A stretch of DNA of 56,514 nt, counting the filler, from Sluysia triapertura (taxonomy: Eukaryota), in NCBI GenBank assembly GCA_046118255.1. It is 4 parts of 4 records of this genome, joined end to end, with 100 filler letters (N's around TTAATTAATTAA, not from the genome) between each part and the next. Parts side by side here need not be neighbours in the genome. Positions count along the whole stretch, not along the records: positions 11,931 to 33,392 come from JBJNIA010255077.1; 3 more parts are not named here. One strand, 5' to 3'. Positions 235 through 30,320 of this stretch are shown in pieces. Position 1 is the first letter of the stretch. Each line of letters begins with the position of its first letter. The notes beneath the pieces were generated by a model, which was given only the letters and a program-made list of their open reading frames with translations, was not told the origin of the DNA and ran no database searches. The position numbers and the translations under genes were made by a program.

Positions 235-558
235 ATATGGTACTTCAAACTTTACAAGTGAAGTCTTTGAATTGGTAGCCAATATCTTTAATATATTGAG
301 AATCTATACTTCCTCTTATAACCCTCAAACAGGTGGTCTTGTTGAGAGATTTAATATAACTTGTTACAATATTATGTAAATGATAGACAAACTAAATGGG
401 ATTTATATACGGCAGCGTATAATTTTACACCTTTCTACTTAATGTTAGGAAGACATACTGACATGCCTGTAGATTTTGACTGGATTCCAGCGACTTCGCA
501 ATACTTAGAAATTCCAGAATGTCACATTAATGAGCAAAAATTTACAAAGTACCTATAA
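235..558 (+). pseudogene. Ty3/Gypsy integrase remnant (same family as the 10.8-16.8 kb element)
   Basis: Translates to ..NFTSEVF..LRIYTSSYNPQTGGLVERFN..YVNDRQTKWDLY..FTPFYLMLGRHTDMPVDFDWIP, closely matching ORF 12091..13074; has internal deletions. Confidence 0.85.
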
Positions 559-3419
559 ACGCACGAGTTTAAAGTGAGATGTTTTCGAAATTGACGGTCA
601 TAAGGGTTCCGATGAAGTACTTCATAATAAATTTCGCAATCAGTACTTAATTACTTGCTAACTGACGTATTAAATTTTAATAAGTTATCCTGATGGATAA
701 ACATTTATGTTTTGAAATTTTTTATTGACAACATTCATGCATTTTAAAATAATAATTTTTGTACAATCTTAAAATAAATAATAAATAAATAAATAGTAAA
801 CTTTATTGGTTTATATACATATTTCAATAAATAACAAATGATGATAAAGCAAGTAAAATAAACTTTAACTAATTCTTTATTTGAAAATTTACAATCAAAA
901 TGATAAATAAATTCATATACAATATTAATTAAAGGTTAAAAACAAAATAAAATTGAATCTTGCATTTATTATCTACAATAGTAAGTTTCTCTTCAAAAGA
1001 CATTTGATCCAACATTTATATTTCGCTTTTCTATTTTGAATCCTATAAACTCAGTACGTAATTTATTTTGTAACAATTGTAAAATAAGTCATTTCATGTT
1101 TTGAATTATGTATTGTTGATACATTAATAATACAGACTTATATCTCGCGCTTAATTTCATATTTGTTTTAAAATTGGGCGCATTTAGATTCAAATATATT
1201 ATCAATAGATAATTTACAAAATTAAAATATAAATGTTTCATGCAAGACTCAATATGGTTTGAATAATCTTCAGAATTTGAAAAATTAACATGCTTTAAAA
1301 TATTATTTTCACTGACACAAACATAAAATAAAATTCGATAATCGTTTCAACCATACATGATATTTGAAGTTGTTCTGGTAGACATTGTTTTGAAAACGTA
1401 GATAAATAAAATTTACCTATTGTGTTTACAATTAGTGTGTTTAAATTTTGAGTTCACTACATTTACAAATAAGATATTCTCAAGAATTACATAAAGATGC
1501 ACAAAAAAGCTAAGTAACACAATTTTGAAATAGGAGATAAAGTTCTAATAGATTATCCATTAACAAGACATGGTCAGTCTCATAAATTACACAAGCCTTT
1601 TAAAGAACGTTATGAAGTTATGAAAACTACCTTAACTAATTTATTTATTAAGGATTAAGGTTAACATGTAAGTTGGCACCAAAAAATGAATATAATTTGA
1701 GAAATATTCCTAAAACTGCATTAAAAATAATACCTAAAAAGATAGAGACAAACTGTACGTAATCTCTTCAGCTGTTGACAAGCAAATAATAATGATGTTG
1801 AATTCTTAAATTTGATTAACCAAGTACAAATAAATCAAAGGTGGATAAAAGCCTTGATTGAGAAAGGCACGAGTAATTCTATTGTCCAATAAAATATATC
1901 AGATACTCTAGAAATTGCTATGAGACAGCAGCCTGTGTTAAATGTTTACAGTGTCATTTATTTATGTAAATGGAATTTTTGTAATGTCAAATTACAATTT
2001 CGAAAAACAATGTTTGTTGTTCAATACTAGTGTGGGACAAAAGTCCCTATGAAGAAATAATAGGATTAGACGTGATTAAATATTTAGAGGACATAGTAAT
2101 TCGTAGTAGGCACGGTTATGTACACCTTTATAGATTTCAATAGCTCAACCAAATCCGATGCAACAAGTTTTCGTACATGGTTAAGTAGCGCCACACATAA
2201 CTCCACATTATCCAAACACAAGAAATGACATCGGAATCATCATCTATTAATGTGGATAACTCAGACATAACATCAGTCTCTTCAGGAATTGAACTGGACC
2301 GTCCAGATATTAGTGCTATCAACTCTTCGAAAATTAACTGTATTTTTATACTTTTAAAGATTCAATATATAACTATATGTAACAATATAACAATACCCAA
2401 TAATATGTAAAAATGGATTCAGTCGACTAATAATACGTAATGAAAAATTCACTAATACTAAATACGTAATTAAATATTTACTAATATTAATTAACTTCTC
2501 CAATATGAGAATATATCTTAAACTACTAAAGAATTAAAATTGATTTTGTTATTATCATCGCACAATAATCGTATAGTAGATTAGGTAATAATATGATGTC
2601 AATTTAGATATGATTTTATTACTATCATATTAAGATAGCGCAATATTACTAAAAGATTTTTATGGATTTTAACATTTACACGTAAGAAAGGTAAAAAATT
2701 ATGCATAATAATAAACTTATGGATTTTTACAAATGAGAATAACTCCATCGTTAATTGATTTAGTTATTCATTAGCACGAGTAAATACTGGAGCACTAAGA
2801 AGCAATAGTCAAAATGACGTGAATAATAATACCAAGTAATAATTGAACAGTACCGAATAGCGTTTTATTATTATTTACTTTAATTTTAATTTCAGATACC
2901 GACAAATATTACTACGTAGTCATATTGGATCAGCTGATTAAGTGTTACTCAACTACAAGATTTACTAAACATTAGCTTATAACTTATTTTTCAATATCTG
3001 TGATGCAGCTTGCTAATATTTATTTTAACTTATCTAATATGCCCAGCAAAATATACATTCTTAATTGGGTCACTTGCGTCAATATTTCATATCAATTTAG
3101 AAGATGTCACAAGATTTAACTAAATATAACCTAAGTTTAACACAGATTTTCTACATATCTTCAGGTGTTAGCATATAACGCACTTAAAGCATTTTTGATT
3201 TATAATAGAAATAGAATCAAATAGAATAAAATAGGAATAGAATAAAATCACGAATTTTCTTTATAAAAATTAATCCTTTTGTCATTTAATTTAATAGCTA
3301 AAACAAAAATTGTTGTTAGGCAAAAAAATAATTATACTTTAATAATTATAAAAATATTCATTCCATTAAAAGATGGTAAAATAAAAAATAAAATATTCTT
3401 TAATTAAAAGGAACTTTCC

Positions 3420-4547: not shown

Positions 4548-4877
4548 TTAAAAAAAACTTACTGTTTTATCTGTAAAATTGTTGACTTGTTGATAAGACG
4601 TTAGTAACCTCAAACTCGAATTAATTGTATTTGGAGCATCATTATAATCGTTCATGTTATACTTTATAAGGTTCGTAAACGATATAGATTCATTTTGTTT
4701 GATTTCACATTTAGCTGTTTTTGAGACGAATTTATCAAATGGATCTTTGGAAGATGAAAATTTATTTAAAATATTTTGTGAACTTATGAAACGGGTTATC
4801 TTTTTATTACACTGATTACGTAATAAATCATTGTACTTAATTTCATCATAATCATTTGGTATCACTTTAACAGGCAT
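4548..4877 (-). CDS. Orphan ORF downstream of repeat copy A (probable cargo fragment)
   Basis: 109-aa ATG-initiated ORF with no recognisable domain. Confidence 0.25.
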   Translation of the reverse strand: MPVKVIPNDYDEIKYNDLLRNQCNKKITRFISSQNILNKFSSSKDPFDKFVSKTAKCEIKQNESISFTNLIKYNMNDYNDAPNTINSSLRLLTSYQQVNNFTDKTVSFF

Positions 4878-5349
4878 TTGAAGATTTTAAAATCTGGTAA
4901 ATTGACACTTTACATAGATTTTTCTAAGAATGTAGATTTCACGTAAAATAATCTTTGTTTTTGTTAATGATTTAGATAAACTGTTTTTGAATAATCAGTT
5001 ATCGAAACATTAATAAAATTGATTTGTACAGCAAAAAATATGATTATCAAAAAGTTCTTAATTGATATATATGATTTTCTAAAGTTAAATCAAAATAACT
5101 AATTGTGGTGCTTACAAAATTTTCTAAATATTTAATTATTAATCAACTCTACATTTATTGAACCACAATTTTAGTTAAATTTAGGTTAATTGAGCACAAA
5201 ATTTGTATGCTGATTTATATGCTTACATCAATTTTACATCAATCTTTTTGTTGACGAATAAAAGAAGAGCATAAATTAAAGGTCATATTTTGTTTCCACA
5301 CAAATACAAATTATACGAGTTAAACCGACTGTCATCTGTTAATTTTAAT

Positions 5350-6756
5350 GAGTAAACTGTCAAAGTTGGCAGTAGTAACCAAAATGATGATAATAATGAA
5401 AATAATAATCAAAAATAATAAAATTAATAATAATAATGGTTAATAATAATAATAATAACAATTAATAAAAATCATAATAAATAAAACACATGAATCTTTT
5501 ACATATATTCTTCTTTTTTTATTAAAGTTGGAAATATTGAAAAAAATTCCATTTTGATTATAATGATGTTTTGAATTAACTTTGAAATGTAAATTTGATG
5601 ATTTTGATGTTATGAAATTGTGAACTTAAAATGTGTTGAAATGTCTAAAATTTTAAAGGTTTTGAAGTAATATGTGAAATGTTATGAAATGTAGTTTTTA
5701 GTTCTAATAGTGACATTTGAAATTAACCAATTTCTACTAAAATTCTAATAACTTTTCTGTTCTTTTCCTTTCTTTTATTTTTTGGGCACTATTTAAAATA
5801 TGCCTGTTGATTGGCACATCAATAAAATTTTTTACACTTTTATAATTATAAGATTTTTTAATATTAATAATAACAATAATGTTTCTGTTATTATTAACAC
5901 TAACTGAATGCGAAATACATAAATTCTTTATGTAATCCACTAAACTTTCTTTCTTTTATTACTTTCTGTTTAACATATTATAAATTAAAATGGAATGGTA
6001 AAAACGATAAAATTGAATTCAATAACAATAACAAGATGCACGATATTCAAGTTATTGTTGCTACTGCATTGCATGAACTTGAATTCTTTAAAACTGCACA
6101 CGATCTTCCTTTGATTTTTCGGAATTTATTGACATATTGTAATAAATTTAAAATATGTTTGGAACTAAAGTTTCTGAGTAGAAATTGCTTTGGATGAATT
6201 GGTAAGTTAGGGTTTCAAGGTATGATAGTTGATTTAAATCGTGACATGAAATAGAAAATGTTAGAATGAGTTCTTAGATGGTGATTAAAGTTCATACTTG
6301 AAAACGACATTTAAGTATTGGAAGATCGAGGATAAAAGACCTATTGAGAAGATTGTAATTTGGTAAATGTAAAAAGGCAACTACAATACAAATCTTGGTA
6401 TATTTAAAATTTATTGTGCCGTGTTTTATTGTTTTTTTTAAAAAAGGTATTGTCTTGTGTTGTTGGTGATTATGCAGAGACGAATGGTAAATTTAAGGTG
6501 TTGTTATTGATTCGGAGGTGTAAAGTAAATAATTTTAAATGTGGATATTATTTGGTTGTTAAGGGTGTTGAGTTTTAGATAAATTTGTTGGTAAAAGTTG
6601 ATGGTATTAGATGTAACTGTGGTTTGTATAGTATGAGCTTGTGAATGTAGCTTAGTTTAGGCAAATGAACTATTTTGTAATTGTGTAAATATTAAAGTGT
6701 TGAAAGTTTAATTAATTTTTTTATAATTTTAGCGGTTATAAAGGTTGTCCACCACA
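5350..6756 (-). repeat. TGTGGTGG-initiated CA-rich dispersed repeat, copy A
   Basis: Starts TGTGGTGGACAACCTTTATAACC on minus; aligns by eye over several hundred nt with 20507-21700; hairpin at ~6024-6059. Confidence 0.8.
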
Positions 6757-7978: not shown

Positions 7979-9317
7979 AATTAATAATTTTTGATGTAAT
8001 ATTTATTTAATTCTTCAATTAAGTATAAATAAATTTTATTTCAATGATGGAAAAAATACGGATTGAATGGAAACACCATAAAAGCACGTAACGTTAATAA
8101 AATAAAAATGAATACTAATATAAAATAAATCATACATAATAATTAGATTAAGTTACCAAAATTATAATATAGAATAAAATAACTATTGTGTAGAAATAGT
8201 ATGAAATTAACTATTTTGAGCCATAAAATCACAAAAAACAGAAAGAGATCATTCGAGTACATTTAATAGAATAAAATTGGCTAGAGTGAAATTGACTAAC
8301 TATAAAATATTTATTATAAAAGGCAATTATTGGCTATGGAATAATATTAGTGAAGACAGTATATAATACGTCATTGATAAAATTACAATTTTGATTTATT
8401 GTTGTAAAACTAAAATTTTGTTAGGCTTTTACGCATAAATACATTATCTTTAGATAAAATACTTTTCAAAAGGTATAAAAAAATTATAGATATAATTAAG
8501 TCTGCTCTTTTAAGAAATGGTAAATTTTTTAATTATTTGTATTGCTTAACAGCAATTTGGTAAAATATTTTAGTGATCTTATTTGAAACTATTATAGCAC
8601 ATCATCTCTATCAACAAAGAGGAGTTAAACGAACGTTAACTTAAAAGTGATTTGATGACCTACAGTTTTAAACTTATAATTTGACTTATCTTTTTAGAAA
8701 TAAGTAGGATAATTGAAAACAATTTATGAATAACTTTAATAATAGAAATTGAATAAAACTTATTGTCTCTAGTTACTAATTATTGACAAAGATCATGTAA
8801 AAGAAAATAAAATTCACGAGACTTTATCACCATTTTAAATAAAGTATACCTTTTTTAGTTTATGCCATATTTGGTGGTGTGTTATTTGCATCTTAATTTA
8901 TGAAATCATGCAAAAATTAAGTTGCCATGTTTTATGTTCATTGATATTTTCATTTACATTAATTATACATTACACACTGTATGCTCGTGGATTGCAGATG
9001 TTGGGAAGAACTCGATATCAAAATAATTGTAAAGTCTGTTAAGAAATGACATTTTCAAACACCATGCGTGGAGACACTGCAACAGAGAACTCTGTTAATG
9101 AAGAATTTCATTTATTATATTAATGAGCAAGGATGTCATTAGGTGCTCAAAATATTTCCGAAATATAGTGACGGAAAAGAACTTGAATAAATACTCCTGA
9201 TATATCTTAATAATTTTATGAAATACCAAGTGTTATAAAGTAAATTAATTCACGTAATAATTAAAATGAAATGAGGTATAATATATACAATCGGATAAGT
9301 TTTTTTTTAAATTAACT

Positions 9318-10060
9318 TAGCCCATTCGCCTAATATCCAGGCTTTATACCAATTCTGGAGACGTGCTATTAGGATTTAAACTTATCAAAGAAAACTTAAG
9401 TTTAAACTAAACTTAAAGTGAGTGTATTAACTCTTCACAAATTTAATGTTAAATTACGCTAATTTTATATTATGTCACACTAGCCTTAAAGTCTAGTTTA
9501 AAAAATTATAAATAACACAAGCCTTTTTAAGGACTTGTACAAAACAATTTAATGATTTTAAATAATTACTCTAGCCTTATTAAGGTCTAGTGTTCCGGAA
9601 AATGATTTTATCGTAATCAATAATAAGAAAGATTTCAACCAACGTATATTCTAAAAACTAAAGATTACAACTATTATGTCAAACGATATAATAATAAAAT
9701 TTAAAAGATCCATTCAATTCCTGTTGTTGATATTAAAATTTAAACTTAATTATGCAAGCCGTATGAAGGTCTAGCTTTTAAAAAATAAATTAAATCGTTT
9801 AAGTCAAGATTTTTTATTCATATTTATAGTTAATTACAACAACTTGTAAAATAAAAATTACGTTTGCACGGAAAATAATTTTTATTTAAAATCTGTTTTT
9901 CCTTGCTACTAAAATTGTTGTCTTCCTTGGAAAAATTTGTAATCTAAATTTATTCTGCAACCTTGTCAAAATTTATTGTATTGTTTCATGCTAAAATCCT
10001 AATTACTTACCTTACCTCCATATTGAATTTTATTTCATTAATGCAGTGAAACAATTAAAA
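9318..10060 (-). repeat. Non-autonomous TIR-type repeat family (TAGAGG/TAGGG terminus, hAT-like) with internal GACCGTAAAAAGGCT-like motifs
   Basis: Reverse-complement similarity to 37130-37715 and 40900-41425; terminal GTCAGTTCGCCTAATA..TATACCAA also at 33342-33392. Confidence 0.6.
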
Positions 10061-10813
10061 TTTAAAGCAAAGAAAAATTAAAATATTTTTTCTTTTAAAA
10101 TTTATTACAGATATTTATTTTTTGAAATTTTATAAAAATTTTATTCTTATTAAAAATTTAATTTAATATTTTATTAATTTGTTTTATGTTAAAAATATTT
10201 AATTTAATATTTTATTAATATTTATTAATATTTTATTTAATATTTTATTACTATTTTATATTTTTATAATAAAAATAATTTTTTTACAAAATGTATAAAT
10301 ATAAAATATAGAAAACAAAATTTCAACCTGACAATAGTAATGTGAAGTTAAACGGAAGTTCTCGTATTTTACATTAAATATCTATACTGGTGGTGTTTTA
10401 GGGATACTGGGTTATGTGTTTTTTGTAGTTGAATATAATATTTTAATTGTGGACACTAATTGTTGTTGAATTCGGACACTTGTTCATTATTATGTAAGTG
10501 TTGTTAAATTCAGTAATATTAAATTAGAAGCGTCTGACTTAAATAATGCAAAGCTTATTAAGAATGTCGTGGTTAAGTTTCATATTACTGAATTTTTATA
10601 ATCTACGACGCATGGTAAAATTTGAAAATGGTGAATATATTAATTTTGATTTCTTCCATATTGATTATAGACTATCTTTCTTGCGGATAGTCAGTATCAA
10701 TGAAAGGGCGTGTGCCCAAATAATGATTGAATATTCACCTAATTCACCTACTTTGGTAAAATTTAACTCAATTAAAAATTAAGTTCGTTATTTAATCGTT
10801 ATAATTATGGTTC

Positions 10814-11131
10814 TGTAACTCTATAGGTGTTACCGATACTAACTTATTTAAGTTGTTTACAAATTAATTTAATCGAAAATATTTCATGTCGCGGGTCGCA
10901 TACTTGTCTCAGTTCGAGGTAGAAGTGCTTTATAACTAATTTATTCTTTAAAATCGTATCTAGTTAAACTCCTGCTATGGTCTGAGTATGTCTTGATCAG
11001 CTTTGCTTTGTTATGCTTTATTTTAATCCTATTCTACGAAATTTTGTTATACTTTTAAAATAATCGTAATCTATCGTAAGGGAATTTTTATTTTGTATTT
11101 TTTACTTGTAAAACTTTGACCTTATCTTACA
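10814..11131 (-). repeat. Candidate 3' LTR
   Basis: Minus strand TGTAAG...GTTACA (TGTAA/TTACA inverted ends), preceded by purine-rich AAAGAAGGGATTGGG; internal AATAAA; no second copy in the window. Confidence 0.4.
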
Positions 11132-11743
11132 GATCTATACCCAATCCCTTCTTTATTGTTACTCAAAGAAACGAAGTGAGACTACAAACAATTTATTTCA
11201 AATAAAATAATTGAGATAAAACCATTTTAATGATATAATGCTATTACAATGTAATTCAATTAAAATAATTATTATAATTATAAAATATAGTTAAACTTTT
11301 CAATTTTCAGTTGGTCATTAAGATCAATTATAAAATACCACCAAACTGTAAAATAACTATTATTTCTATTGTTCCTTAAGATCAATAATACAATATTGTC
11401 AAATATATTGAGCCTTCGGACTAGATCGAATTAAAATATTATTGCTATTATTATTATTATATAATTTTGTTTACATTATTAAACTGTTTGTTTTTTACTA
11501 CTCTATGTATTTATCGTAATTTTTGGCAACATATTTTGACATTCTTGATAATAAACTTTTGGTAACGTTTGTTGTTATTTATAATTTGATATAAGCGTAT
11601 AATTAACATTTGCGTTGTTCTTAGAACCTACATATTTAAGGTTGTTTGACATTACTATCTAAGATAAAATTATACGAGTTTTGACATATCGTTATTCTTT
11701 AGGCATACTTTCACGTTATTTACAGATACGTCATTGGTAAGTA

Positions 11744-12087
11744 TGTTGTGTCTTTTAATATTTTTCTCTTCCCAAATTATTAAATCAAAAATCAACCATT
11801 GAATAAACTCAAAACCTCAGTGTATTTGGTNNNNNNNNNNNNNNNNNNNNNNNNNNNNNNNNNNNNNNNNNNNNTTAATTAATTAANNNNNNNNNNNNNN
11901 NNNNNNNNNNNNNNNNNNNNNNNNNNNNNNTATCGTCATTTTTATAGAGACAATTCGTATTATTATAATTTATATAATCTGATTGTAGTTTTGATATTAT
12001 ATCAAATATACTGAGGTTTTGAGTTTATTCAATTATTGATTTTTGATTTAATAATTTGGGAAGATAAAAATATTAAAAGACACAACA
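11744..12087. mobile_element. TIR element (TGTTGTGTC... termini, TIR at least ~85 nt) inserted 3' of the Gypsy ORF; interior lies in the assembly gap
   Basis: 11744-11830 is the near-perfect reverse complement of ~12001-12087; flanked by direct GTA(T); an uninterrupted paralogous site is at ~44592-44635. Confidence 0.65.
11831..11930. other. Assembly spacer (N44 TTAATTAATTAA N44; six-frame stop linker)
   Basis: Identical artificial 100-nt block occurs three times. Confidence 0.97.
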
Positions 12088-12090
12088 GTA

Positions 12091-12432
12091 TCATAATTTC
12101 GAAATTCGAGATATTCGGTTTTGTAGGTTTGGACTTATGTATTTATCGAGTATATCCAAGTCTATTATTAAATCAAAAGGTGATTCTTTCCAAACATAGA
12201 TATATTCGTTTATTTGCTTATCTAATATATTCAGGTGTGCATGTATTGTTCCATCTATATTTATTGGCGTCCGTTGCACGTTATAAATTATTGTTGGCGG
12301 TGGGTCCAAGAACACAGTTTCCCAAGTAGTTAAAAAGTTGTAATGTATCACCGATGTGGTTGCTCCTGTATCTATAACCGCTTGAATCCATCTACCATTA
12401 AATCGTACGTTTTGGAAAATGTGTGTACGTAT
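12091..12432 (-). CDS. Second retropepsin-like aspartic protease (PR2), fused in frame C-terminal to integrase
   Basis: VRFNGRWIQAVIDTGATTSVI...DLIIDLDIL in ORF 12091..13074; DTG at ~12364-12372. Confidence 0.85.
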   Translation of the reverse strand: MRTHIFQNVRFNGRWIQAVIDTGATTSVIHYNFLTTWETVFLDPPPTIIYNVQRTPINIDGTIHAHLNILDKQINEYIYVWKESPFDLIIDLDILDKYISPNLQNRISRISKL

Positions 12433-12585
12433 TCCAGTTGATACGTGGTATATCATTATTACTTGTTTATCGACCAGTGACTGAACTGAGGATGGTAGTT
12501 CATCGCGATCTTTTGTTCTAGGTTTAATCTTTAATTTACATTTTTTAACAATTATATTTCTTAACCTATACTCATCTGTTGGTGC

Positions 12586-13510
12586 GATCTTACATCTGTT
12601 CGCATGTACTACAAAGGTTTCGGAATCTATTTTAGTAGTGTCCTTAACGAATAAATTAGTATCAGTGACTCTCATTACTTCGTACGGTCCCTTGAATGGT
12701 TTGTGTAACTTCGGTGATTGTCCTGGTTTAGTTAGCGGATATTCAACGAGTACTTTATCACCAATTTGAAAGTTGTGTTCTTTAGCTTTCTTATCATATG
12801 CATCCTTATGTGCCTCTTGTGAAAATTTTATTTGTAAACCAGCACGCTTCCACGCATCTTGTAGTCTTTCGTGCATTATTATTACATATTCTGGCATGTC
12901 CATATATTGTGATGTAGGTGGTATCCATTCTAAATCCATTGGCATATTTGAATGACGCCCGTACATTAAGTAAAATGGAGTAAAATTTGTTGCTGAACTT
13001 CTGTATGCGAATAAGCATGGTGCTATATATAAGTCCCAATTTGACTGTCTGTCGTTGACATAAGACTGAAGCATGTTTATCTCTCAACTAATCAACCAGT
13101 TTGTGGATGTTGAGGTGATGTATAAATTCTGAGAATATCAAATATTTTGACCTTGATCAGTTAATAGTTTCCGTGGTGTACCGTATCTGTATATTATTTT
13201 TTCAACAAGTATTTGTGCAACTGTTTCGGCTTTTTGATTTGGCATTGGGTATGCTTCAAGCCATTTAGTCAAATAATCATCGAATACAATAATGTATTTC
13301 CATTAATAGTTTTCGGTACCATAGGTTTGAGTGGTACCTTTGTTTTTATTCCCGTGTTTTTTCTTCCACAACAAATTGAACAATTCTTACACCATTTTCT
13401 AATATCTTCCATGTCCTCCCAATAATATTTATCTTTTATACGCAATAATGTTTTCCTCAAAGATAGATGTCCGCCTAGTTGACCATCATGAAATTGTATT
13501 AATATTGGCG
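12586..13510 (-). pseudogene. Integrase (HHCC, rve core, GPY/F module), frameshifted
   Basis: FHDGQLGGHL..YYW..CSIC; DYLTKWLEAYP..TDQG; HPQTG.LVER; TPFYLMYGR; KLHKPFKGPYEV..VHANRCK. Confidence 0.93.
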
Positions 13511-13671
13511 TTATTAATGATTTGGGGACTATCGTTTTCCAGTCTTCCTTCGAATCTCTAAATCGAAGGATTCCATCCGTAATTGCTAATCTCTTTGTCT
13601 GATTTTATATTAGTGTTCCCTTTGCTAGTGAATTGATAATAGATGAAATCTCTTCGTCTTCCCTTTGATGT

Positions 13672-14090
13672 TTAATAATTTCCTTTATCATCTACATTAG
13701 TTAATCGTGACATACAATCAGCGCCATTATTTTGTGAACCTGGTTTGTAAATAACTTCTAAATCAAATTCGGATAGTTTGTTGAACCATCTATTCAATCT
13801 ACTCACTTCGTCTCTATGATTATACAAGTAGGTTAGTGGTTTGTGGTCTGTATACAAATAAACTTTTTGTCCTAACAGATAATGCCGAAATAGCTTACAT
13901 GCATATACTATTGCTAAACATTCCTTTTCTATCGTCGAATAGTTCATTTCAGATTTATTCAATCTTCGACTAGCATATGCAATTACTGCTTCTAAGTTTT
14001 TATCTTTTTGTCCTAAAATTGCTCCTATGGCATAATTACTAGCATCTGTGGTGAGTATAAATGGTTTATTGACATCAGGGAATATTAATA
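13672..14090 (-). pseudogene. RNase H of Gypsy pol
   Basis: FILTTDASNYAIGAILGQ..IAYASRRLNKSEMNYSTIEKECLAIV..YTDHKPL..ADCMSR. Confidence 0.95.
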
Positions 14091-14099
14091 TTGGTGTCG

Positions 14100-15010
14100 T
14101 TAATCGTTCTTTTAATTCGTTAAAAGCTTTTGTTTGTTCTTCCGTCCATCTAAACTCGACATCGTTTTTAGTTAATTTTCAGAGGGGTTGTGTTATTTTA
14201 GCGAAATTTTGAACAAATCTCCTATAGTAATTAGCTAGTCCTAAAAACTTTGAACCTTTTTTACGTTATCAGGTTGTGGGAATTTTACCACTTTTTCTAC
14301 ATTTCTCGGATTGGGTTTTATTCCAGCTTTTGGTACTATGTGTCCTAAAAATTCGCCTTTTTCTTCAGCCCAAACACATTTGGTTGGTTTAATTTTCAAC
14401 CGAGCTATTTCTAATCTGTTTAACATATTATCAATGTCTTTTATATGTGTTTCAAAATCTTTAGAAAATATTATTATGTCATCTATATATATACCATGAC
14501 ATTTTTGCATCCTGATAATACAAAATTCATGCATCTTTGAAACGTTGCAGGTACGCTTTTTCTCACATTCGTATAATTCATCACCATAAGTGAATGCGAT
14601 TTTATGTTTATCTTTTTCGGCAATTTCGATTTGCCAATAACCGCTGTAAATCAAGAGTTGTAAAATATGTGGCATTTCCTAGTTTGTCCAGCATTTCATC
14701 TATTCGTGGTAAGGGAAATACGTCTTTTCTTGTTATCTTATGTAATTCTCTAAAATCTATACAAAATCTCATTGTACCATCTTTCTTTTTAACCAGTAAA
14801 ACTGGAGATGAGAAAGTTGAGAAGCTTGGTCTTATTACTCCGGCCTTTTTCATTGTGTCTATTTGTTCTTGCATCTCCTTTTGTTTACATATTGGTATTA
14901 TGTACGGCTTTTTTCGGATTACCTTATCTATTATTAGCGGTATCTCGTGTTTTATTATTACGGAATCTCCAATGTCGTATTTTTTTGCTATTGCTCTGGG
15001 ATATCGGTAA
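14100..15010 (-). pseudogene. Reverse transcriptase of Gypsy pol, frameshifted
   Basis: SSPVLLVKKKDGTMRFCIDFRELHK..FPLPRIDEML..YFTTLDL; GYWQI; YIDDIIIFS; FLGHIV. Confidence 0.96.
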
Positions 15011-15149
15011 ATAACATCATATAATTGTTTTATTTGTTTGTTGGTTAGATTTTTATTAGTAATTTGAATTTCACCACAATCCTCATATTGTATTTCACGC
15101 TGCAATTTTATATTATTTTTGGTTTTGTTTATCAATATTATTGTATTTA

Positions 15150-15410
15150 TATGAGCAGGTATTATTTACTTTCCCTAATTTAGTACCAGTATAAAGCCAT
15201 TTATTATTGTTAGTGTAATTTATAATTCGTACCGGTATTCTTCCTTCACAATTATTACATACTGCATTAGCTATTCCGATGTCCAACTTTTCTTGATTAT
15301 TTTCTGATGCAATAAACATAATGTTTTCGTTTAATAAACTATTTGTCTTGGCCGACATTATATATTTACTTCTTTTAACTAGCCATACTGGTTCATCAAC
15401 GTATACGTCA
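15150..15410 (-). other. dUTPase-like beta-rich spacer domain between PR and RT
   Basis: IGIANAVC..GRIPVRIINYTNNNKWLYTGTKLG resembles the degenerate dUTPase-fold segment seen in many Gypsy pol proteins. Confidence 0.4.
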
Positions 15411-15479
15411 TCATCATCAATAGTTCTCGATCGACTATCCATTAATTTAACTTGGTCAAAATCTAGTGTTACTCCTTTC

Positions 15480-15747
15480 AATTGAGACAATATATCCATC
15501 CCCATTATCATTTCTTCTGGACATTTTTTCATAACTCTTAATTTAATTTCTAGTTTATTTTGTCCTATTTCATTACTCCAGTTATGTTAATAGCATCACC
15601 TGTGACTCCTGATAAGTGGGAGGTATGATTCGCTAAGTTTTTCAATTCATCTTTATTTAAGAAATTTTCATTAATTAAAGAAGCTACCGCTTCTGTATCG
15701 ATTAATGATGTTACTACTCCATTTACTCTAGCGTTAACTATTGGTCT
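15480..15747 (-). pseudogene. Canonical-position aspartic protease (PR1)
   Basis: RPIVNARVNG..SLIDTEAVASLI (DTG mutated to DTE) .. GVTG .. MIMGMDIL. Confidence 0.85.
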
Positions 15748-16009
15748 CTTTGATCCATTATAGTTATTATTTGCGCAAATCATATATATTACGTGTGGCG
15801 GTGACAATGGAGCGTTAGAATGTATCCCTTTATTTTGATTTTCTTTAGCTGTTTTGTCCTCTGTTATTTTATTTCCATAAAATTTCTGATTTTCTATAAT
15901 TTCTTCGTTTTCATTATTCTGTAATGATTGCAGTGTTATATTTAACTGTTGTCTTTCTTGTGATTGATGCCTTTCTTTTCTTAATGCGTTTATCTGCGCA
16001 TTAGCATGA

Positions 16010-16810
16010 TGATGTAATAGATATTTTGCCAAAAAGGGGAAACATCAAATTATCAGTTTCTTATTACCGAAAATGCTTGAGATATTATTAGTGCAATTAC
16101 CTTAATTATTATGTAAATACCTATTAATCCGGAAAATGCCTGTCCTAATATTAAAAATTTTCCCCATATGTGTTTTAGTGTATCCTGCGCTGCTCTTTTA
16201 AAATGGGCAGGTCCTAATAATAATTCAAAATTTATTTGTCCATTCTTCTCTACTGTTGCTTATTTACTATTTCTGTTAATATTTTCGACCTTTTAATTGG
16301 GAACAAGATTTCCCGCCAAGCTGCCTTTAATGTCGTCGTTTGTATACATATCCGAGTTTGGTATATTTTTTGTAGCTAAAAATTTTAATTTTCCTTTTAG
16401 TTCGGTTAATCCTATTATTTCCGGAGTTTTTACTTGACTCCTATGTGGTAAGGATATCCATAGGTTATCATCTATTCTATACTCTGGAGCAATAACAGAA
16501 CAATGCATTAATTTCGGTTTGACTTCATTGTTTGGGAAAATTACTCTAGTTACTGGTTCTAAATGTTTTTATCATACAATATAGGCAATTCGTTTGTGCA
16601 TTCAGTGGTTGATCTTAATTGTACTTCAACGTTTTTACATTTATGTGTATAATACTTCTCCCATTAGTCGACCGAAAACTCCTTCTAATGGTAATAATGG
16701 TGCGACCAAGTCTGGATTTGTGATTACTATTGCTAATTTTGTACGCAAGATTTCCTTATTGATATGGCAATCGCGAATAACCATTATTTGGTAAATTTTT
16801 TCTAAAGATA
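16010..16810 (-). pseudogene. Chuvirus-like (class III/gB-type) envelope glycoprotein, C-terminal half with TM region
   Basis: Frameshift-corrected: IYQIMVIRDCHINKEILRTKLAIVITNPDL..GRLMGEVLYT/KCKNVEVQLRSTTECTNELPI../LEPVTRVI..CSVIAPEYRI..W..P..MYTNDDI/AWREILFPIKR../WGKFLILGQAFSGLIGIYIIIKVI; matches the recalled chuvirus G pattern GEV..KC.PV....CY.ELPV..P.TRI..GIY..D...IMFP..W..F..FG..S.G..G. Confidence 0.8.
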
Positions 16811-16811
16811 T

Positions 16812-17160
16812 TATATCTTTAAAGGTTAATTATATTTATCAATTCTTTCGAAACAAATATTACTCAGAAATTTAGTCCCAAATACATTTTTAATTCATTT
16901 TAATGTTAGAAATCATTAAGAATTTTAGGAAAACCCTATAGAGTTTTAAAGAATTCAATTTTATACAATGAAATAACAACGATAACTCTAGCATAGTGCA
17001 CCCTGTTATCGTTGCTGTTTCACTCAGTTTTGTCAATTTTTATTTTATTTTTATTTTTATATGTAAGAAATAAGTAAGAAAGAAAGATCGTGTGATATAT
17101 CTGAAAGAAAGTTATTGTTATTATTATTATTATCAATTATTAATATTTTAATTTATTAAA
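16812..17160 (+). repeat. Partial copy of the TGTGGTGG repeat family (3' part); truncates the env gene
   Basis: Direct similarity to 21248-21640, including the hairpin at 16969-17022. Confidence 0.85.
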
Positions 17161-17405
17161 ACAATAATTTAAAATTGTATATTTTTTAAAACAACAATTT
17201 AAATTGTTATTTGTTTTGTATTATGATATAATAGTAATATTTAAAATAAATAAAAATAAATAAATAAAATAAAACAAAATATAAAAATAAAAATAAATAA
17301 CTAAAAATATTCAGATGTTTCATTAAATAAAATATCCAATTGTTAAAATAAAATAAAAATCATTTCATTTAATATTATATGTTGATTATTCCAACAGCTT
17401 TTTTT

Positions 17406-18952
17406 CTATATTGTTCGATTCCTAATGCTAACAATGTTTCCCCCAAAGGGAAGATTTGTCCCAAATCTAAAAATCGTCATCAAGATCGACGTCGTGGAAT
17501 AGAGGAGGAGAAGGGGAATCTGTAAAAGCTCCATGGGCGGAGCGAGGTCTTCGACGCGGAGGTGGGAAAGATCGCGGAGCGTGACCTGATTTTTGGGGAG
17601 ATCGGTGATTCGCGGAAAATTGTCGCAATCCGACGATAATGATGGCCTTTTCCGTTTAATGGAAACAGGCTTCTTGAATACTTGAAAGGTAGATGCCGTG
17701 GATGTCGATGGTGATGACGGAAGTTGACTGGTAGTGATAATTGTATTTGATGTTGTAGATGGATATTTTGATGACGGAGTAGAAGAAGTAGGGTGGGAGG
17801 AAGAATGCAAGGAATGTTTGAGTAAAGAAGAACCAGTAATTGCAGAAAAAGAGGAACTAGACTTTTTTGAGAAAAGAGAGGGAGGGTCGTTACAACGAGG
17901 GATAAAGCCTTCATCTTTCTCTGATAAAATCCAGTAGTGTGACTAATTCAGTTGCCGCCTGTAAACAAGAAAACTTTGGACAAATGGGTATAGCAACTTC
18001 CAAGTAAGTCCTCTGTTGGGAAAGAAAGAAGGTTATGGTTAGTCAGGTTCATAATACCGCGTAACCAATGATTGAATGATAAATACAGGGTCAAGTGCCA
18101 CCAATATCTTATTATGGAACAAATTTAGAAAGTAAGGTCTGACGCTATCGATATCCTTAGCGTCCTCGGTGTCTTTTGCTGTTATTAATTGCTTATGTCG
18201 AAGAAAGTTTTTAATTCTAGCGCGTGGTTTAATGTGTGACTCTGAGTGAGACTGCTTACTACATGGAATAGAGGCTATTCCTGTTAATTGATACTGGTTG
18301 TTAAAATTAATAGCCTAGTAACAGGCTACGAAAAGTAGCAGTTCCTCATCGAAGATAGACAGGGAGGAACATGGGTGTAGGAAGTCCCACTGTTCCAACG
18401 GCCCAAGTTATCTGTATCAGAGGCGAAAAGGTTATCGAGTTTTGAAGGGAAATATGGGGGTACGAGAACATAAAGTAGAGAAATAGACATAGGGAATTCA
18501 AGGGCTTCGAGGAAAATCCCACAAGAGCGGGTTAAGGCTGAAAAGTGAATAGTCGAAGGGCCTTCAATTCTTAACAAAAGAGGGTTATTATTCACAGTAA
18601 GGGTTATTCTGACTGTTCCACGTGCTACTGCGATGTAAAGTGTATCAAACTCTTCAGGGGCATTAGCCATTCCACGTAAAGTAATCTGTGAATGGTCAGG
18701 GGTTAAAGGGAAAAAATGTGAGGCTAAGTTCTCATTTAGCTCACTCTTTAATTTACGGTCTTTTGAGAAAGAATCAGGGAAGAAAACAGGAGATGATAAA
18801 GTAGCACAAAATCGGTCTACGGAGATATAGAAGGATTTTAGCTCTGGGATGAACTTTTGATTTAGTTTGTTCTTGAGTATTGATAGATTTTCTATAGATA
18901 CATAGTACAAAGAATAAGAAAGGTAAAATGTAATATACAAAAAAATATTCAT
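17406..18952 (-). pseudogene. Degraded ~500-codon orphan ORF with Ser/Thr/Pro-rich C-terminal part
   Basis: ORF 18326..18952, a long open stretch ~18315-18045 and ORF 17406..17810 are collinear, joined by stops/frameshifts; GC visibly higher than background. Confidence 0.45.
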
Positions 18953-19263
18953 AGGTAAAAATTTTTTAATTCGTATTTTGAATACTATAATAATAAATAA
19001 TATTTAAGTAACAATTTTTATTATTTTTTAATAAAGGGGTTATTAACTAAATGTTTATTTAATTTATAAAATTTTCTTAATTAACGTCGTCGATAATTAT
19101 GCTTTTGTGACTTAGTTAAACCTGGTGAATAATCATGTTTTGGTACCTGAAATCCATTATACGAAAAACGAACTTTTGATAAATCAGAAGGTTGTAAAAT
19201 GTCAATACTAGAATCTTCCCTGAGCCCATTGATAGCTACAACAGGAAATGAATCTGGTTTGAC

Positions 19264-19584
19264 TTATTTTACTGTGAATTCGTAAGATCTTCTAAACTTT
19301 TTTCTATAATATACCTCACATTCCTTAACTGTGACACGACACATAGGGCAAGAAGGAAAAGGAGTTGGGGCAGATTCGAACAGAAAATAGAGACAACGGA
19401 AATGAAAACGGTGTTTACAGGGAATAGTCACGGAGTAGTATTTTCTAATTGGTTGACGACAAATTGCACAGATGGTAAAACGTATTTGGGTAGACATTAT
19501 CGACTGGAACAAAGATACAATATAGTATACAGTATTATTAATAAAAAATATTATAGAAGCAAATAAGTTAAATATCGATACCAT
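19264..19584 (-). CDS. Small intronless RING-H2 zinc-finger protein (putative E3 ligase)
   Basis: CAIC-x13-CKHRFHFRC-x14-CPMC, i.e. C3H2C3; frame intact. Confidence 0.85.
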   Translation of the reverse strand: MVSIFNLFASIIFFINNTVYYIVSLFQSIMSTQIRFTICAICRQPIRKYYSVTIPCKHRFHFRCLYFLFESAPTPFPSCPMCRVTVKECEVYYRKKFRRSYEFTVK

Positions 19585-19746
19585 ATATTACATATTGACC
19601 TAACTAGACAAACTAAAATATGAGTTATTCAACATCACCTTCTCATGATCGATAATGGATAGTTAACAGCCATCACATATGGTCAGCAAGCAGGGAGTGT
19701 CTTTACTCATACTTTATGTTCTAATTATTAATTTTAAGTGAGTATT

Positions 19747-20361
19747 TCATGCTTTAATAAAAAGATGATTCCTGTACCTAATGAACAAATAGAACTTATG
19801 AATTTGACAAACAATATGTATTACTGATGTAGTTAGAAAAAGACATGTTATAACATGGTAAAAGAGTATAGATTGGTAGAGATTTAATATAGTGTCCTCT
19901 GTGGAATTTCTATTCGAGTAGTTCTGACATTGTGAGCTTAAGTTTTTACTTAACTTAGTGGTATAGTTTAGATTTTTAATATTTCGTACTGTACTTTTAG
20001 TACTTGCAGTAGTAGTGGTAGTAATAATGGTTTGTGTTGAAGTAGTGACAATATCCTGTTCTTTTAGTATTTGTACCATTAGATCACACACTATACTCTG
20101 GCCAAAATCCACGTGATCAAGAATTTCATTATAACGTAAAATCCACACTTCAATAAATTTAAGATTAGGCTCTGGTGCAAAATATAGATTAACGCCAGTG
20201 TTTGGAAGGATTAAGGCATAGTGTTGTTCCTTGTTAAATAATTCGTCAAAATTTTTCTTAGGTATATCCTTTTTATCTCTTTCGTGACCAATTATAATAG
20301 CGTTTTCTAATACCGGATTTGTTATCCGTACAAAGTTATTACCTTCCCTATATAATAACAT
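19747..20361 (-). CDS. Orphan protein with Thr-rich linker and C-terminal hydrophobic (TM-like) segment
   Basis: 204-aa open frame in AT-rich DNA; TTSTQTIITTTTTAST followed by ILFYHVITCLFLTTSVIHIVC. Confidence 0.5.
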   Translation of the reverse strand: MLLYREGNNFVRITNPVLENAIIIGHERDKKDIPKKNFDELFNKEQHYALILPNTGVNLYFAPEPNLKFIEVWILRYNEILDHVDFGQSIVCDLMVQILKEQDIVTTSTQTIITTTTTASTKSTVRNIKNLNYTTKLSKNLSSQCQNYSNRNSTEDTILNLYQSILFYHVITCLFLTTSVIHIVCQIHKFYLFIRYRNHLFIKA

Positions 20362-20506
20362 TAAAAACTTAATAGTTATTGATAAGTGATTAAAAGCGTA
20401 AGGTTGTGTCCTAACTTTATAATTATGTATTGATATAACTTTCGAGTTTTGTTTTAGTTCATATTCAAATTCTAACTTAAGAGTAATATTAAATAGCTGA
20501 TTTTCT

Positions 20507-21710
20507 TCTAGTGACCAACCTTAATAACCACTAAAATTTTATTGAAAATTAATTTTTTTTCTTCATTTCATACATCTCAACAGCTGTATATCCATTTATT
20601 ACATTCTTTAAAATCAAATTATATTCACAATTCCACAGCATCTAAATTATAATTACATTCAACATTATCAATTTATGTTAACTAATTCACCAGAAACATT
20701 ACTCGACATTCACAATAATCCAACAACAAATACATTCGAAGTAATCCAATTAATACTTTCGAACCCTTTATTTTATACTACATTTTAACAATCAATACCC
20801 AATAATTAATAACATTTATTCAATAGTTTATTTGCTGCAACTAAATCACAATCATAAACTCATAACACATAAACCACAATTACAATTAACACCATTCCAC
20901 AACACTAATAAATCTACTCGAAACGCATAAATACCCACTTCACACCCTTGAATCAATTACAACGTTTCAAATGCACTATTCATCTATGCATAATCATCAT
21001 TAACACAAAACTACAACACCAAAAACATCAAACAAATTAATTACACAAAACATAGTATAACAACACCTTAAATATGCAAGGAGTTGTATTACATTGTTTT
21101 TAGATTCATTAAATTACAATCTTCCCAGTAAACCTTTTTATCCACGATATTTCAATACTTAGATCTTATTTTCAATTTTAACTTCAATCAATATTTAAGA
21201 ACTTATTCTAACATCATTTATTTCATTTTTGACTCAATTCATTCATCATATCTTTAAAGGTTAAATACAGTTATCAAATCTTTCAAAACAATCCTTACTC
21301 AGAAAGTTAGTTTCAAATACATTTTAACTTACTTCAACACGTTAAACATTTCTAGAATTTAAGCTAAATCTAATACAGTTTTAAAGAATTCAATTTTATA
21401 CAGTGGGATAGCAACGATAACTCCAGCATCATACACCCTGTTATCGTTGCTATTTCAATCATTTCCATCAATTTTTATTCAGTTTCTTTTGTTACCTTTT
21501 TATATGTCAAGAACTAAGATATAAAAGAAAGAAAAGATCGTGTTATTTTCTCGTAAAAAGAAATTTTATGCATTAATTGTATATTTTCGTTTTATCAATA
21601 ATAATAATAACAATATTGTTATTGTTATTATTATCAATAACTAAATTAATTATTACTAAAATTTTATATAATCCATAAATTTGTTACTACCACCACCAGT
21701 GTTGACGTTT
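20507..21710 (+). repeat. TGTGGTGG repeat family, copy B
   Basis: Starts TCTAGTGACCAACCTTAATAACCACTAAAATT (variant of the copy A start); aligns with A and D; ends at TTACTACCACCACCAGTG box. Confidence 0.8.
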
Positions 21711-24719: not shown

Positions 24720-25110
24720 CATAATACACAATTTCAACTTTGGTAGCATTCCGCATTCACATGTCTAAAGGTTTTATTAAGATTCTAAAGTTATTTAGTA
24801 CTTTGTAAGTTAAAGGAATCTAGATGCTTTCGTTTACACCACTCTGATGCCTTTTCTACTTCTTTACGTTAATTATCAATGCATCAAACTTACTTTTAAT
24901 GTTAGCAACAATGATTTTATTTCTCAAATGTTCTAAAGATTTCAACTGCTTATCAAGGTCTCAAAGACTCCTAAAGGTCAATGAAATCTCAGATGATCTC
25001 AAAGTTCACAAGTCAAAGGTACTCTAATGCATCTAAAAGTTTTCCAAACTAATCTAAAGCTTCAACAAGGTCTCAACGTCTTCGGAAATCCAAAGTATTC
25101 TTCAGCTTTT
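24720..25110 (-). repeat. Dispersed repeat family (3 copies: here, ~32610-32900 +, ~35965-36335 +)
   Basis: Shared GAGAAATAAAATCATTGTT.CTAA.ATTAAA..AAAGAAGT..AAAAGG block and short-period internal repeats. Confidence 0.75.
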
Positions 25111-26984
25111 AAGGTTACTGTAGATGTTTTCATCCAACAATATTTATTATCAATTCCTCATGCACTTTGTAATTCCATGTATTTCTTACCCATCTCCTGT
25201 TCCACAGTGGGACAATCCCAACAATACAAAGAACCACATTTTACTATTATTCAGGCATGGAAAAATTATTGCAGCAGCTGTAAGGCTGATTCAATACAGT
25301 AATAGCAAACACTGACTGAATCTGACAGATTTTTAGAAATCTAACTAAATTTTATCTTTAAGTCAACTTATTTGTGGTTCTTGAGCTTTATTGTAATTTT
25401 GATACTAACATTTACATGTGTTGTGTAAACCCTGAGATTGAGTATTAAAATCAATTTTTATTTATAGAATTATTTTGAAACTGATTTATAATAAATTGTC
25501 GTAAACAGACCAAATTAACGAATATTTGATTTTTATTGTGATATAGTTATTATGTATTTGTATTTTATAATTAATGTTAATTATTATAATTTAAAAAATA
25601 TTTTCTATAAAATTGATCTGATTGGCAATTTATTTGCTAAATTCTAGCACTTCATTTTATTTTACAAATAAGATTGCTTTGGTCAAATATATTATTTGTT
25701 CATTCAATGATAGTAAATGATACTTGTTTTAGATGTCTTGACATTGTGTCAGAATGCATTAAATATGTTCAGATTTTATTAAAACTTTAACTGGACAATT
25801 ATGAATATCTTACTGGGTTCGCCTATAATCTAAGATTTGCATCTCACGGAAGACTTAGTTATGGGATTTCAATGAGTCAATACTTCGAAAGAGTCCTTAA
25901 TCTAAATGTAATAGTCCTTTTATTATAATGGAGGGTCTGTAAAGAATTTATCTTTTCGTATAAACAAATCAATTTTATGATGTAATAAAACTCGAGTAAG
26001 TCTCTAATATATATTCCAGAAGAAAAGTTAAGTAGTGTATTAAAATTTTGAGTACAAATATATATAATATGAACAAAAATAAATTCAAATGATATACAAA
26101 TATATACTAGGATTTTGTCCTAAGTTATTTTATTACAACGAAAATTTAGATAAGATTTTAACCCAGGTGAATACTGGGGCGTTGAAAGTTAAAAATATAT
26201 TAAGTGTATTTAACACAAACTTATTTTTGTGAATAGCTTAATATAAGTAGTTTACGGTTTTACAAATATATATTCTCGATCCGAAGAATTTCCAAATATA
26301 AGATTTAGGTACGAATTCCAAATACTCCGTATGTAAACCAATTGTGTCGCCAACCAAGTAGAAATCCAACTGAATTTGATAATATCGACCACGAATAAAA
26401 ATTATCCTTGTACTTCACGTAAAACTTCTTGAAATCGTAAAACGAACAACTTGTATAAGAAAAGTGAATAACCAAATTGATTCAAATAATTGCGTTTGTT
26501 ATCGAAAACCGTGAACTATTTATACTAAGCAAAATTTTTTGAAGTCTACCGACAAGCTTTAATATGTACCGGCTATTTTCTTTCGGTAGATATTATTTTA
26601 TTTATTTTGCAAGAAAATATGATTAAAATTATTTGGTAAATTATATCTTTTTGATAAAAATTAATTAATTAGTACAAAACTTCTTTTTTGTTTTCAGACA
26701 AAATTAATTAATTTGTACTTTTAAATTATAATTTTTTAACCAAAAATGTTTTTTCAAATTACTAAAATTATTCAAAAATTGTTTAAATTATTAAAAATAA
26801 TTAAATTAACTAATCATATTTTCACTAATTAAATTATATTTTTACTAATTAAATTTTATTTACAGTACTAGTCAACTTTCCTAGTAACGGATAAGTCCAC
26901 ATTTGATAATAGTGTTTTTTATAATGTAAATTTCAAAATTAAAACAATTCTACAATTTAAACTAAACCAACTATCCCAGCCATC

Positions 26985-27500
26985 ACACTATATTCCTGGG
27001 CCATTAGGTTTGAATACTGTAGAAGTTTGGGTTTTACTTTGTCACTTGGAAATATTACTCTAGTTACAAATTCTAAATATGGTTGTGTTTTATCGTATAA
27101 TATTGGTAGTTCATTGATACATTCTGTCTCTCATCTTATATTTGTACCTTTTTGCATTTAATGAATATAACATTTCTCCCGTTGGTTTGCCGAAAACTTC
27201 TTCTGGGTTTGTAATAGTTAACACCAATTTTATGCTTAGTAATTATGCTTAGTAATTAATTATAAATTTTTCTAAGGACGTCAATCCTAGATGGTAATAG
27301 AAATCTATCTTATTATTAAAATGCGTATTTAATTTTATGTTTTTTGCAACGATCCCTACTTTAGCGTTTAATGTTATTTATTTTGACAGAAAAATACTCT
27401 TGTAATATCAGAGTGATACTAATATCAGTCCATCTTCTTCCTTACTTTCGGTATTTCCACTTCATTTACTTTTTTCCTCTGTAAGAAGTCTGTATTTTCA
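26985..27500 (-). pseudogene. Second remnant of the chuvirus-like glycoprotein
   Basis: KNIKLNTHFNNKIDFYYHLGLTSLEK..ITNP..VFG..GE..ETECINELPILYDKTQPYLEFVTRVIFPSDKVKPKL; aligns with ~16480-16810 and extends it N-terminally. Confidence 0.85.
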
Positions 27501-27550
27501 TTATTCATTTGTTTTAGGTTTATTTCTTTTATTAGAAATTTATTATTATC

Positions 27551-27697
27551 TTAGTAAACAAATTCCCAAGAATTCAAAAAAATTCGGCGAACAACAGAAA
27601 TAGTAACACCATTGTCAATCGCGGCTTTTAACCAGACACTGTTGAAATTAATATTTTGAATAATATGTCCCTGAGTACGAGGTACATAATTATTCAT
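27551..27697 (-). pseudogene. Remnant of the post-integrase protease (PR2 paralogue)
   Basis: GHIIQNINFNSVWLKAAIDNGVTISVVRRIFLNSWEFVY vs THIFQNVRFNGRWIQAVIDTGATTSVIHYNFLTTWETVF. Confidence 0.8.
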
Positions 27698-29390: not shown

Positions 29391-30320
29391 ATGGCCGTAA
29401 GTAAACTTATAAAGAATAGTGTATATTTCAAAAGGTTGCAAACTAAGTTTAGAAGGCGAAGAAGTGCGTTTTATTGATAATAAATTGATTATTTAAATTA
29501 AGGTGGTCAAACTGATTATTACGCCAGAAAACGTTTAATACACCAAGATAAAAATAAATATGGTACGCCAAAATATAGAATGGTAGTACGATTTACCAAC
29601 AAATGTGTCATTTGTCAAATTGTTTCTGCAGAAATAATTGGTGATAAAGTTTTTTGCTCGGCTTATTCGACGGAGTTACCAAAATATGGTTTAAATGTAG
29701 GATTAACCAACTATTCTGCTGCATATTGTACTGGTTACCTATTAGCTAGAAGAACATTAAAGAAACTAGGTATGGATGATCTCTATAAAGGTACAACAGA
29801 ATTTGGGGGTAAAGATAATGAAATCCAAGAAAATCCCGACAGAAGACCATTCACAGCTCATTTGGATGTAGGTTTAAGACGTACAACAACTGGTGCTAAC
29901 CTTTTCGGGGCTCTTAAAGGTGCAGTTGATGGCGATCTTAATGTGCCACACAAAACAACTAGATTTCCGGGAGCTAAGAAAGACAAATACGATGAAAGCG
30001 TTCATACGGATAGGATTTTTGGTAATCACATTAGTGAATACATGCGTTACTTGCTTAACGAAGATGAGGAAAAGTACAATAAAACCTTTTCGGAATACAT
30101 TAAAAATGGCGTTGATGCCGATAATTACAAGGATAAAATCACTGAATGTTTAGAAAAAATTAGAAGTAATCCTGAAGCTAAAGAAAAACGAGATGGAGAA
30201 TACACTGGTAAGAAAATAATTCTGAAACAAAAGCGCAATTTGAAACAGCGCAAAGATAGAATAAAGCAAATTAAAGAAAGTATCTTAGATCAGTTGAGAC
30301 TTGAATGTGCAGAATCATAA
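29391..30320 (+). CDS. RPL5: 60S ribosomal protein L5 (uL18); exons 29391-29463 and 29503-30320, 39-nt intron
   Basis: Spliced MAVSKLIKNSVYFKRLQTKFRRRRS/GQTDYYARKRLIHQDKNKYGTPKYRMVVRFTN..GLTNYSAAYCTGYLLARR..LDVGLRRTTTGANLFGALKGAVDG; the GT..AG intron contains an in-frame stop. Confidence 0.97.

Follow-up and report, generated by a model that had tools for sequence, protein, structure and literature searches.

Ty3/Gypsy elements that carry a viral-type fusion glycoprotein upstream of pol are already on record, as far as the accessible parts of two accounts go. The planarian Burro elements (Arkhipova and Yushenova, 2019; PMC6431247) have env in frame between gag and pol and a dUTPase-like domain located between PR and RT. 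GAG-ENV-POL gypsy elements with a gB-type ENV have since been reported from Nematoda, Bryozoa and Platyhelminthes (Chary and Hayashi, 2026; PMC13524379); they include six Schmidtea elements of 14.5-18 kb, are not monophyletic, and for those of nematodes the authors cite Sacco et al. (2022). From what is accessible on them, the nematode endogenous retroviruses (NERV) are, like the locus described below, metaviruses with an RNA-virus glycoprotein and a flipped ENV-POL order, and differ from it in that their hosts are nematodes. The NERV of Sacco et al. 2022 reportedly have a continuous gag-env-pro-pol frame. Anakin, a mosquito BEL/Pao element with a chuvirus G, shares the Pfam glycoprotein family of the present locus, again judging from a partial account, and differs from it in its BEL/Pao pol and in falling on the other side of our Env tree. 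The Anakin glycoprotein of Dezordi 2020 is said to lie behind integrase, and P0071, one of the proteins collected here, fits that arrangement. Troyka (PMC12440569), considered as a further related system, was set aside as not relevant on the accessible part of its description.

The window analyzed here is a 56,514-nt stretch of Sluysia triapertura DNA, joined from four parts of the assembly GCA_046118255.1. Its minus strand holds what is very probably a 5′-truncated, dead Ty3/Gypsy copy (hereafter the main copy), with a chuvirus-type Env directly before PR-RT-RH-IN and most likely of Burro type. The Env-before-pol layout is real, and it is already described.

The region 16056..16829 (−) corresponds to the C-terminal half of a gB-like (class III) glycoprotein of Monjiviricetes/chuvirus type. 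Read with ORF 16293..16568 setting the frame and X standing for stops, this remnant (16829-16056) matched Pfam PF24664 (Monjiviricetes_fusion) over profile positions 326-570 of 653 with an E-value of 2.7e-21 and a score of 75.7 bits versus a cut-off of 27, and matched our own env profile over positions 332-593 of 626 with E 3.6e-67. Its alignment with the relative P0002 scored 474, versus a maximum of 55 among 300 shuffles, and its identity to the 13 nearest relatives was 33-40%. All four Cys conserved among 13 relatives in this half of Env are kept, two of them from a short segment read in a different frame, and C-terminal to these lie an amphipathic stretch and then a single hydrophobic (TM) helix, so that the Cys-patterned ectodomain, amphipathic segment and TM helix read by the first-pass annotation are all recovered. 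The remnant is interrupted by stops and frame changes, and the front half of Env is missing. Judged by its sequence, the PF24664-type class III fusogen of the main copy appears to be real.

Downstream of the TM helix, the stop-free ORF 15565..16044 (−) comprises the Env tail motif, a linker and the N-half of the pol protease with a degenerate catalytic motif, as read from its sequence and its collinearity with P0023. As the natural tail motif of Env, FPFLAKYLLHHH recurs in P0002, P0005, P0023 and the contig L001, and in the main copy no stop separates it from the N-half of the retropepsin, which is in the same frame; the alignment with P0023 runs from the tail motif into the protease (E 8e-9), and Pfam RVP matched the ORF at E 0.023 only. 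The tail motif is not in frame with the TM helix, stops lie between the two, and the link joining them is shorter than that of the relatives. The earlier claim that the glycoprotein continues without a stop into the retropepsin thus holds from the tail to the protease and fails from the ectodomain to the protease, a continuity not demonstrable from the main copy alone because of this frame change and these stops. The protease itself is split across two frames. About 157 codons separate the pre-TM motif from the catalytic Asp in the main copy, and 132-215 aa separate them in the 10 of 14 relatives that were measurable.

The C-half of the protease and the PR-RT spacer (15113..15586, −) were 24-29% identical to the corresponding spacer of 6 of 8 relatives, and searches of Pfam and PDB returned no dUTPase match in it. 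They are followed on the same strand by a reverse transcriptase in two frames (14244..15165; RVT_1 E 5e-12; 33-53% identity to 8 of 8 relatives), connection/RNase H (13675..14178; PF17917 E 2e-39, PF17919 E 2e-37), for which Ty3 was the best of seven PDB matches (E 9e-23), and a broken integrase (12505..13604; Integrase_H2C2, PF17921, E 3e-17), supported by tblastn to L001 and P0006. These Pfam matches place RT-RH-IN behind the retropepsin as had been proposed, and the resulting PR-RT-RH-IN order is that of Ty3/Gypsy; RT and RNase H are Gypsy-type and the integrase is of the H2C2 kind, not of the BEL/Pao type. Sharing a frame with the integrase C-terminus, a second retropepsin-like domain (12175..12456, −; Asp_protease E 4e-5, under the curated cut-off) occupies the same place as in P0006 and P0010. 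Beyond it the sequence has a hydrophobic signal-like stretch (12050..12094, −), whose position fits the relatives and which is possibly the start of their post-integrase membrane protein; no sequence match to the post-integrase units of the relatives was found at this stretch. An assembly gap at 11831-11930 follows on this 3′ side. Across the gap, 11744-11828 and 12003-12087 form an 85-nt inverted duplication (95%), likely an assembly artefact.

When aligned to the intact frame of L001, the main copy breaks up into 9 pieces, with at least 7 changes of frame and 16 in-frame stops; about 5 kb of the element is left. No flanking pair of direct repeats (two LTRs) was found. A search with 21 parts of relatives, which gave three matches in the window, detected no remains of Gag, the Bcl-2-like domain or the Env front upstream of the main copy; a weak env-front match lies elsewhere, at 28131-27994 (E 0.04). 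The place of the Env front and Gag is taken by a shortened copy of a dispersed repeat (16810..17160, −; 78% to 21245-21546 and 70% to 5948-6205), which adjoins the Env remnant at ~16810, where Env ends and the alignment of the repeat stops. On this sequence, the main copy is dead and encodes nothing functional. Run X1 placed 3,250 contigs on 15650-16950, mostly <95% alike, and the summed contig depth was 1.6e4-2.8e5 over the element versus 58-87 at 17132-18112. Depth and divergence together indicate a large, diverged family, the depth not being a copy number.

We searched proteins with an env profile, which returned 1,896 at E ≤0.001, and examined the best 150 of them; the profile was built from polyprotein-type rows, which are therefore favoured among the matches. 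Among these best 150, at least 150 aa followed Env in 19, a protease motif was present there in 14 of the 19, RT was reached after Env in 6, and probes for PR, RT, RH or IN matched ahead of Env in none. The adjacency of Env to PR hence extends well beyond this locus. The independent contig L001 has one stop-free frame of 3,426 aa ordered Env-PR-PR-PR-RT-RH-IN, with Env at aa 470-1109, and P0006 one frame of 4,844 aa with Env, several proteases, ankyrin, PR, RT, RH, IN and two more proteases; both are collinear with the main copy and bear out the earlier reading of a class III-type fusogen upstream of Pol in one Ty3/Gypsy polyprotein. Whole polyprotein frames were found in L001, P0006, P0010, P0012, P0020, P0024 and P0159. 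The initial protein search had yielded four longer relatives, two of them with proteases behind Env, and P0006 as a cluster member. Proteases between Env and RT number one to five across the relatives, and P0012, P0015, P0020 and P0024 have the compact form of the main copy, with a single protease directly after Env. Pattern searches returned relatives in 0 of 76 matches from viral contigs and 1 of 108 from metagenome contigs. P0012 (Env-PR-RT-RH-IN) is labelled in NCBI as a hypothetical protein of a Flavobacteriaceae MAG, probably misbinned animal DNA.

Gag motifs precede Env in P0011, P0018, P0021 and P0024, and in P0021 a CCHC knuckle is followed by ubiquitin-like and Bcl-2-like domains and then Env, at weak scores, in the same order as in the Burro account; the ubiquitin-like and Bcl-2-like matches in P0002, P0003 and P0021 have E-values of 0.001-0.2, below cut-off. 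In the relatives, Env thus does not take the place of Gag. A hydrophobic segment stands immediately ahead of Env in all 13 aligned relatives, and most relatives have one TM at the Env end. In intact members of the Burro-type group a single long reading frame covers Gag, a class III fusogen and Pol, and Env-before-Pol polyproteins form a coherent, varied clade in public assemblies. Behind the polyprotein of L001, at 10617-12107, a separate ORF carries an RNase_T/DEDD exonuclease domain (E 1.4e-5); rotifer LTR elements have comparable extra ORFs.

An Env tree was computed from 77 Env C-halves of 133 qualifying ones, with 57 of the 102 stand-alone rows left out. This quick tree grouped the main copy with 14 of 14 polyprotein-type rows and separated it from 45 stand-alone glycoproteins, with an SH-aLRT support of 94. 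The Env of the main copy is 19-29% identical to stand-alone glycoproteins versus 33-40% to polyprotein types. An RNase H tree of 10 rows, without named references, put the main copy outside the six closest rows (support 83/80), and Env and RNase H both group it with the same relatives. As for the class III nature of the fusogen, proposed earlier, the PF24664 match is joined by weak matches of a 120-sequence family profile to PDB, of which all 33 with E ≤1 were herpesvirus gB (best E 8e-4); they cover the central-helix region, which the main copy retains. The five-sequence profile A1 gave no glycoprotein match in PDB. The AlphaFold model of P0003 (mean pLDDT 81.7) shows a front rich in beta structure and, at 444-491, a helix of 48 residues, and the Env of the main copy corresponds to residues 460-712 of this model; a single-sequence structure model was uninformative (pLDDT 33). 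Such proteins have been modelled as gB-like trimers, according to the accessible text of Chary and Hayashi (2026; PMC13524379).

Comparison with the accessible account of Burro/GYPSM1 (PMC6431247) revealed an Env that, like the one found here, is homologous to mononegavirus fusion glycoproteins and lies in frame between Gag and PR; in our material, the tail-to-protease frame of the main copy and the whole frames of the relatives show this placement. Burro also resembles the present elements in its PR-RT spacer, in the ankyrin and the weakly matched Bcl-2-like and ubiquitin-like domains of relatives of the main copy, and in the decayed fragments with stops and frameshifts recorded for one planarian species. 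Unlike what that account gives for Burro, the main copy has no visible Gag, Bcl-2, BIR, ankyrin or LTR pair, and against the Burro hallmarks of long LTRs and a length over 25-30 kb it has ~5 kb; the extra proteases and the post-integrase FN3-like membrane protein of the relatives find no mention in the accessible part of PMC6431247. The "ancient errantiviruses" of PMC13524379 have the same Ty3/gypsy pol and a gB-type Env upstream of pol and, unlike the main copy, are intact; a common frame of the three parts is not stated in the accessible text. By eye, the Env fronts of the Schmidtea elements in the supplement of PMC13524379, as far as accessible, resemble those of P0002-P0006. Since the main copy has lost its Env front, its link to these rows runs only via P0002-P0006, and its Burro membership is read from the layout and from the by-eye likeness of its relatives to those rows. 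The first-pass annotation had suggested a possible new architecture arising from a separate capture. An Env between gag and pol was already present in PMC6431247 and PMC13524379, and GAG-ENV-POL elements with gB-type ENV are known in flatworms (PMC13524379), so that, on the accessible parts of these accounts, novelty falls away and a separate capture is not supported. With the layout published since 2019 and the copy decayed, this single copy adds little.

A separate capture could still be read as an undescribed Gypsy lineage in which, independently of Burro, a class III fusogen was acquired and came to lie before pol. The 33-40% Env identity to even the nearest full-length relatives, the RNase H placement outside the six closest rows (83/80, in the 10-row tree) and the non-monophyly of GAG-ENV-POL elements (PMC13524379, in its accessible part) would suit it. 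We nevertheless consider such a lineage quite unlikely: Env and RNase H agree on the same relatives, these relatives show the Burro-type extras (Bcl-2-like, ubiquitin-like, ankyrin), decay lengthens the branch of the main copy, and identity among the six Schmidtea Env rows is itself mostly 31-38% (10 pairs compared, from the accessible material). A landing by chance of a chuvirus endogenous viral element, or of an Anakin-type BEL/Pao env, beside a Gypsy pol is extremely improbable. It draws on the Pfam family common to chuvirus and BEL/Pao glycoproteins and on the presence among the Env profile matches of P0071, which has DUF5641 before Env, while the stand-alone glycoproteins including P0071 fall on the opposite side of the Env tree, identity favours the polyprotein types, and the pol domains are Gypsy-type. 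Membership in the Anakin type proper, with a BEL/Pao pol and the glycoprotein behind integrase, is at odds with the Gypsy-type pol and the Env tree.

The junction could also be a local rearrangement in which a deletion brought the 3′ env of one copy with canonical pol-env order up against the pol of its neighbour. Contig cover in run X1 falls to 119 at 15826-15869, between the Env tail and the protease, versus 1e4-5e5 in the bins on either side, and none of the run X1 contigs listed crosses the entire junction. Besides this low cover, a deletion-join would find some backing in the signal-like stretch behind the post-integrase protease and in a second, more decayed env fragment with a shortened post-integrase-type protease in front of it (26975..27690, −). 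The env part of that fragment (26975-27449) matched env profile positions 296-457 with E 3e-9 and 1e-8, and its protease scored 116 against the post-integrase protease and at most 50 against the other 12; this protease-then-env order indicates that scrambled copies exist. At the main junction, the tail motif is in frame with the protease, the Env-to-protease spacing is inside the range of the intact relatives, ORF 15565..16044 is collinear with P0023, and the closest env relatives are of the polyprotein type. As a weak addition, two single run X1 contigs carry both protease-side and tail-side pieces with undetermined letters between them (2 joints among the 15 shown out of 76). We regard a rearrangement as very unlikely, and the Burro-type reading is kept below.

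With domain order, homology, the single frames of the relatives and the decay of the main copy observed directly, we infer how intact members may work, from topology and cutting to packaging, particles and infection. By analogy with viral polyproteins, which are cut by signal peptidase, an internal signal sequence would direct Env into the ER, and signal peptidase would sever it from Gag. The TM helix would then halt transfer and leave the Env tail and Pol cytoplasmic, so that a cytoplasmic Gag and a luminal Env would be the simplest topology. Pol, detached from Gag, would ride the Env tail to budding sites until the protease of the element releases it, and a trimeric Env, like herpes gB, would merge the membrane of the particle with that of the cell. 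In P0015 the Env end contains two hydrophobic segments, and a second TM pass there would place the protease in the lumen, inverting the topology.

Behind integrase, a signal-like segment and a later TM were found in all six relatives with a complete integrase end. These post-integrase units hardly align with one another and share a short motif, which we take to be characteristic of FN3. The profile built from six units chosen for this motif, and for that reason partly circular, matched mostly FN3-bearing receptors in PDB (best E 1e-3); Pfam fn3 was found in none of the six units, and the atlas listed fn3 clusters in 9 of 10 rows, every score being <0.9. L001 has two FN3-like membrane units in one frame, at 4740-5320 (aa 1580-1772, between Env and Pol) and at 9050-10050 (aa 3015-3350, post-integrase). 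From the post-integrase region, the main copy retains only the extra protease and the signal-like stretch. No published mention of FN3 domains or additional proteases in elements of this kind was found in the accessible literature, and the original Burro description or Repbase may cover them. A tentative and rather doubtful interpretation is a two-part entry machine within one polyprotein, in which the gB-type fusogen before Pol would be complemented by a separate post-integrase FN3-like type I attachment or host-modulating protein, located where env usually stands, with the duplicated retropepsins cutting membrane-tethered pieces and Pol packaged via the Env tail, not Gag. If the second protein were an attachment factor, it would parallel herpesviruses, where binding is separate from fusion, and would raise the testable question of how Pol is packaged with a membrane protein between Pol and Gag.

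The dispersed repeat adjoining the Env remnant measures up to ~1 kb and recurs at 16810-17160, ~20600-21660, 5859-6640 (opposite strand) and ~51040-51270; its hairpin is conserved, the third copy showing one compensatory pair. At 245-1886 (+) are integrase fragments that belong to a related copy and have 64-72% identity to the main copy. Downstream of integrase fragments, ~4 kb away and in the same sense, is one copy of the repeat, which may therefore be part of an LTR. Between two copies of the repeat, 17406-20520 (−) has low contig cover and contains orphan ORFs of 257, 225 and 178 aa, the sole domain recognised being the RING finger of ORF 19264..19587 (−; zf-RING_2 E 1.5e-8); a reading of these ORFs as accessory genes of the element is not supported. 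An RPL5 gene at 29391-30320 (+), divergent, with one short intron and with vertebrate proteins as its best PDB matches, indicates that the host is an AT-rich animal. Another dispersed repeat family, with copies 69-74% alike, occupies 24763-25053, 32611-32858 and 36049-36332.
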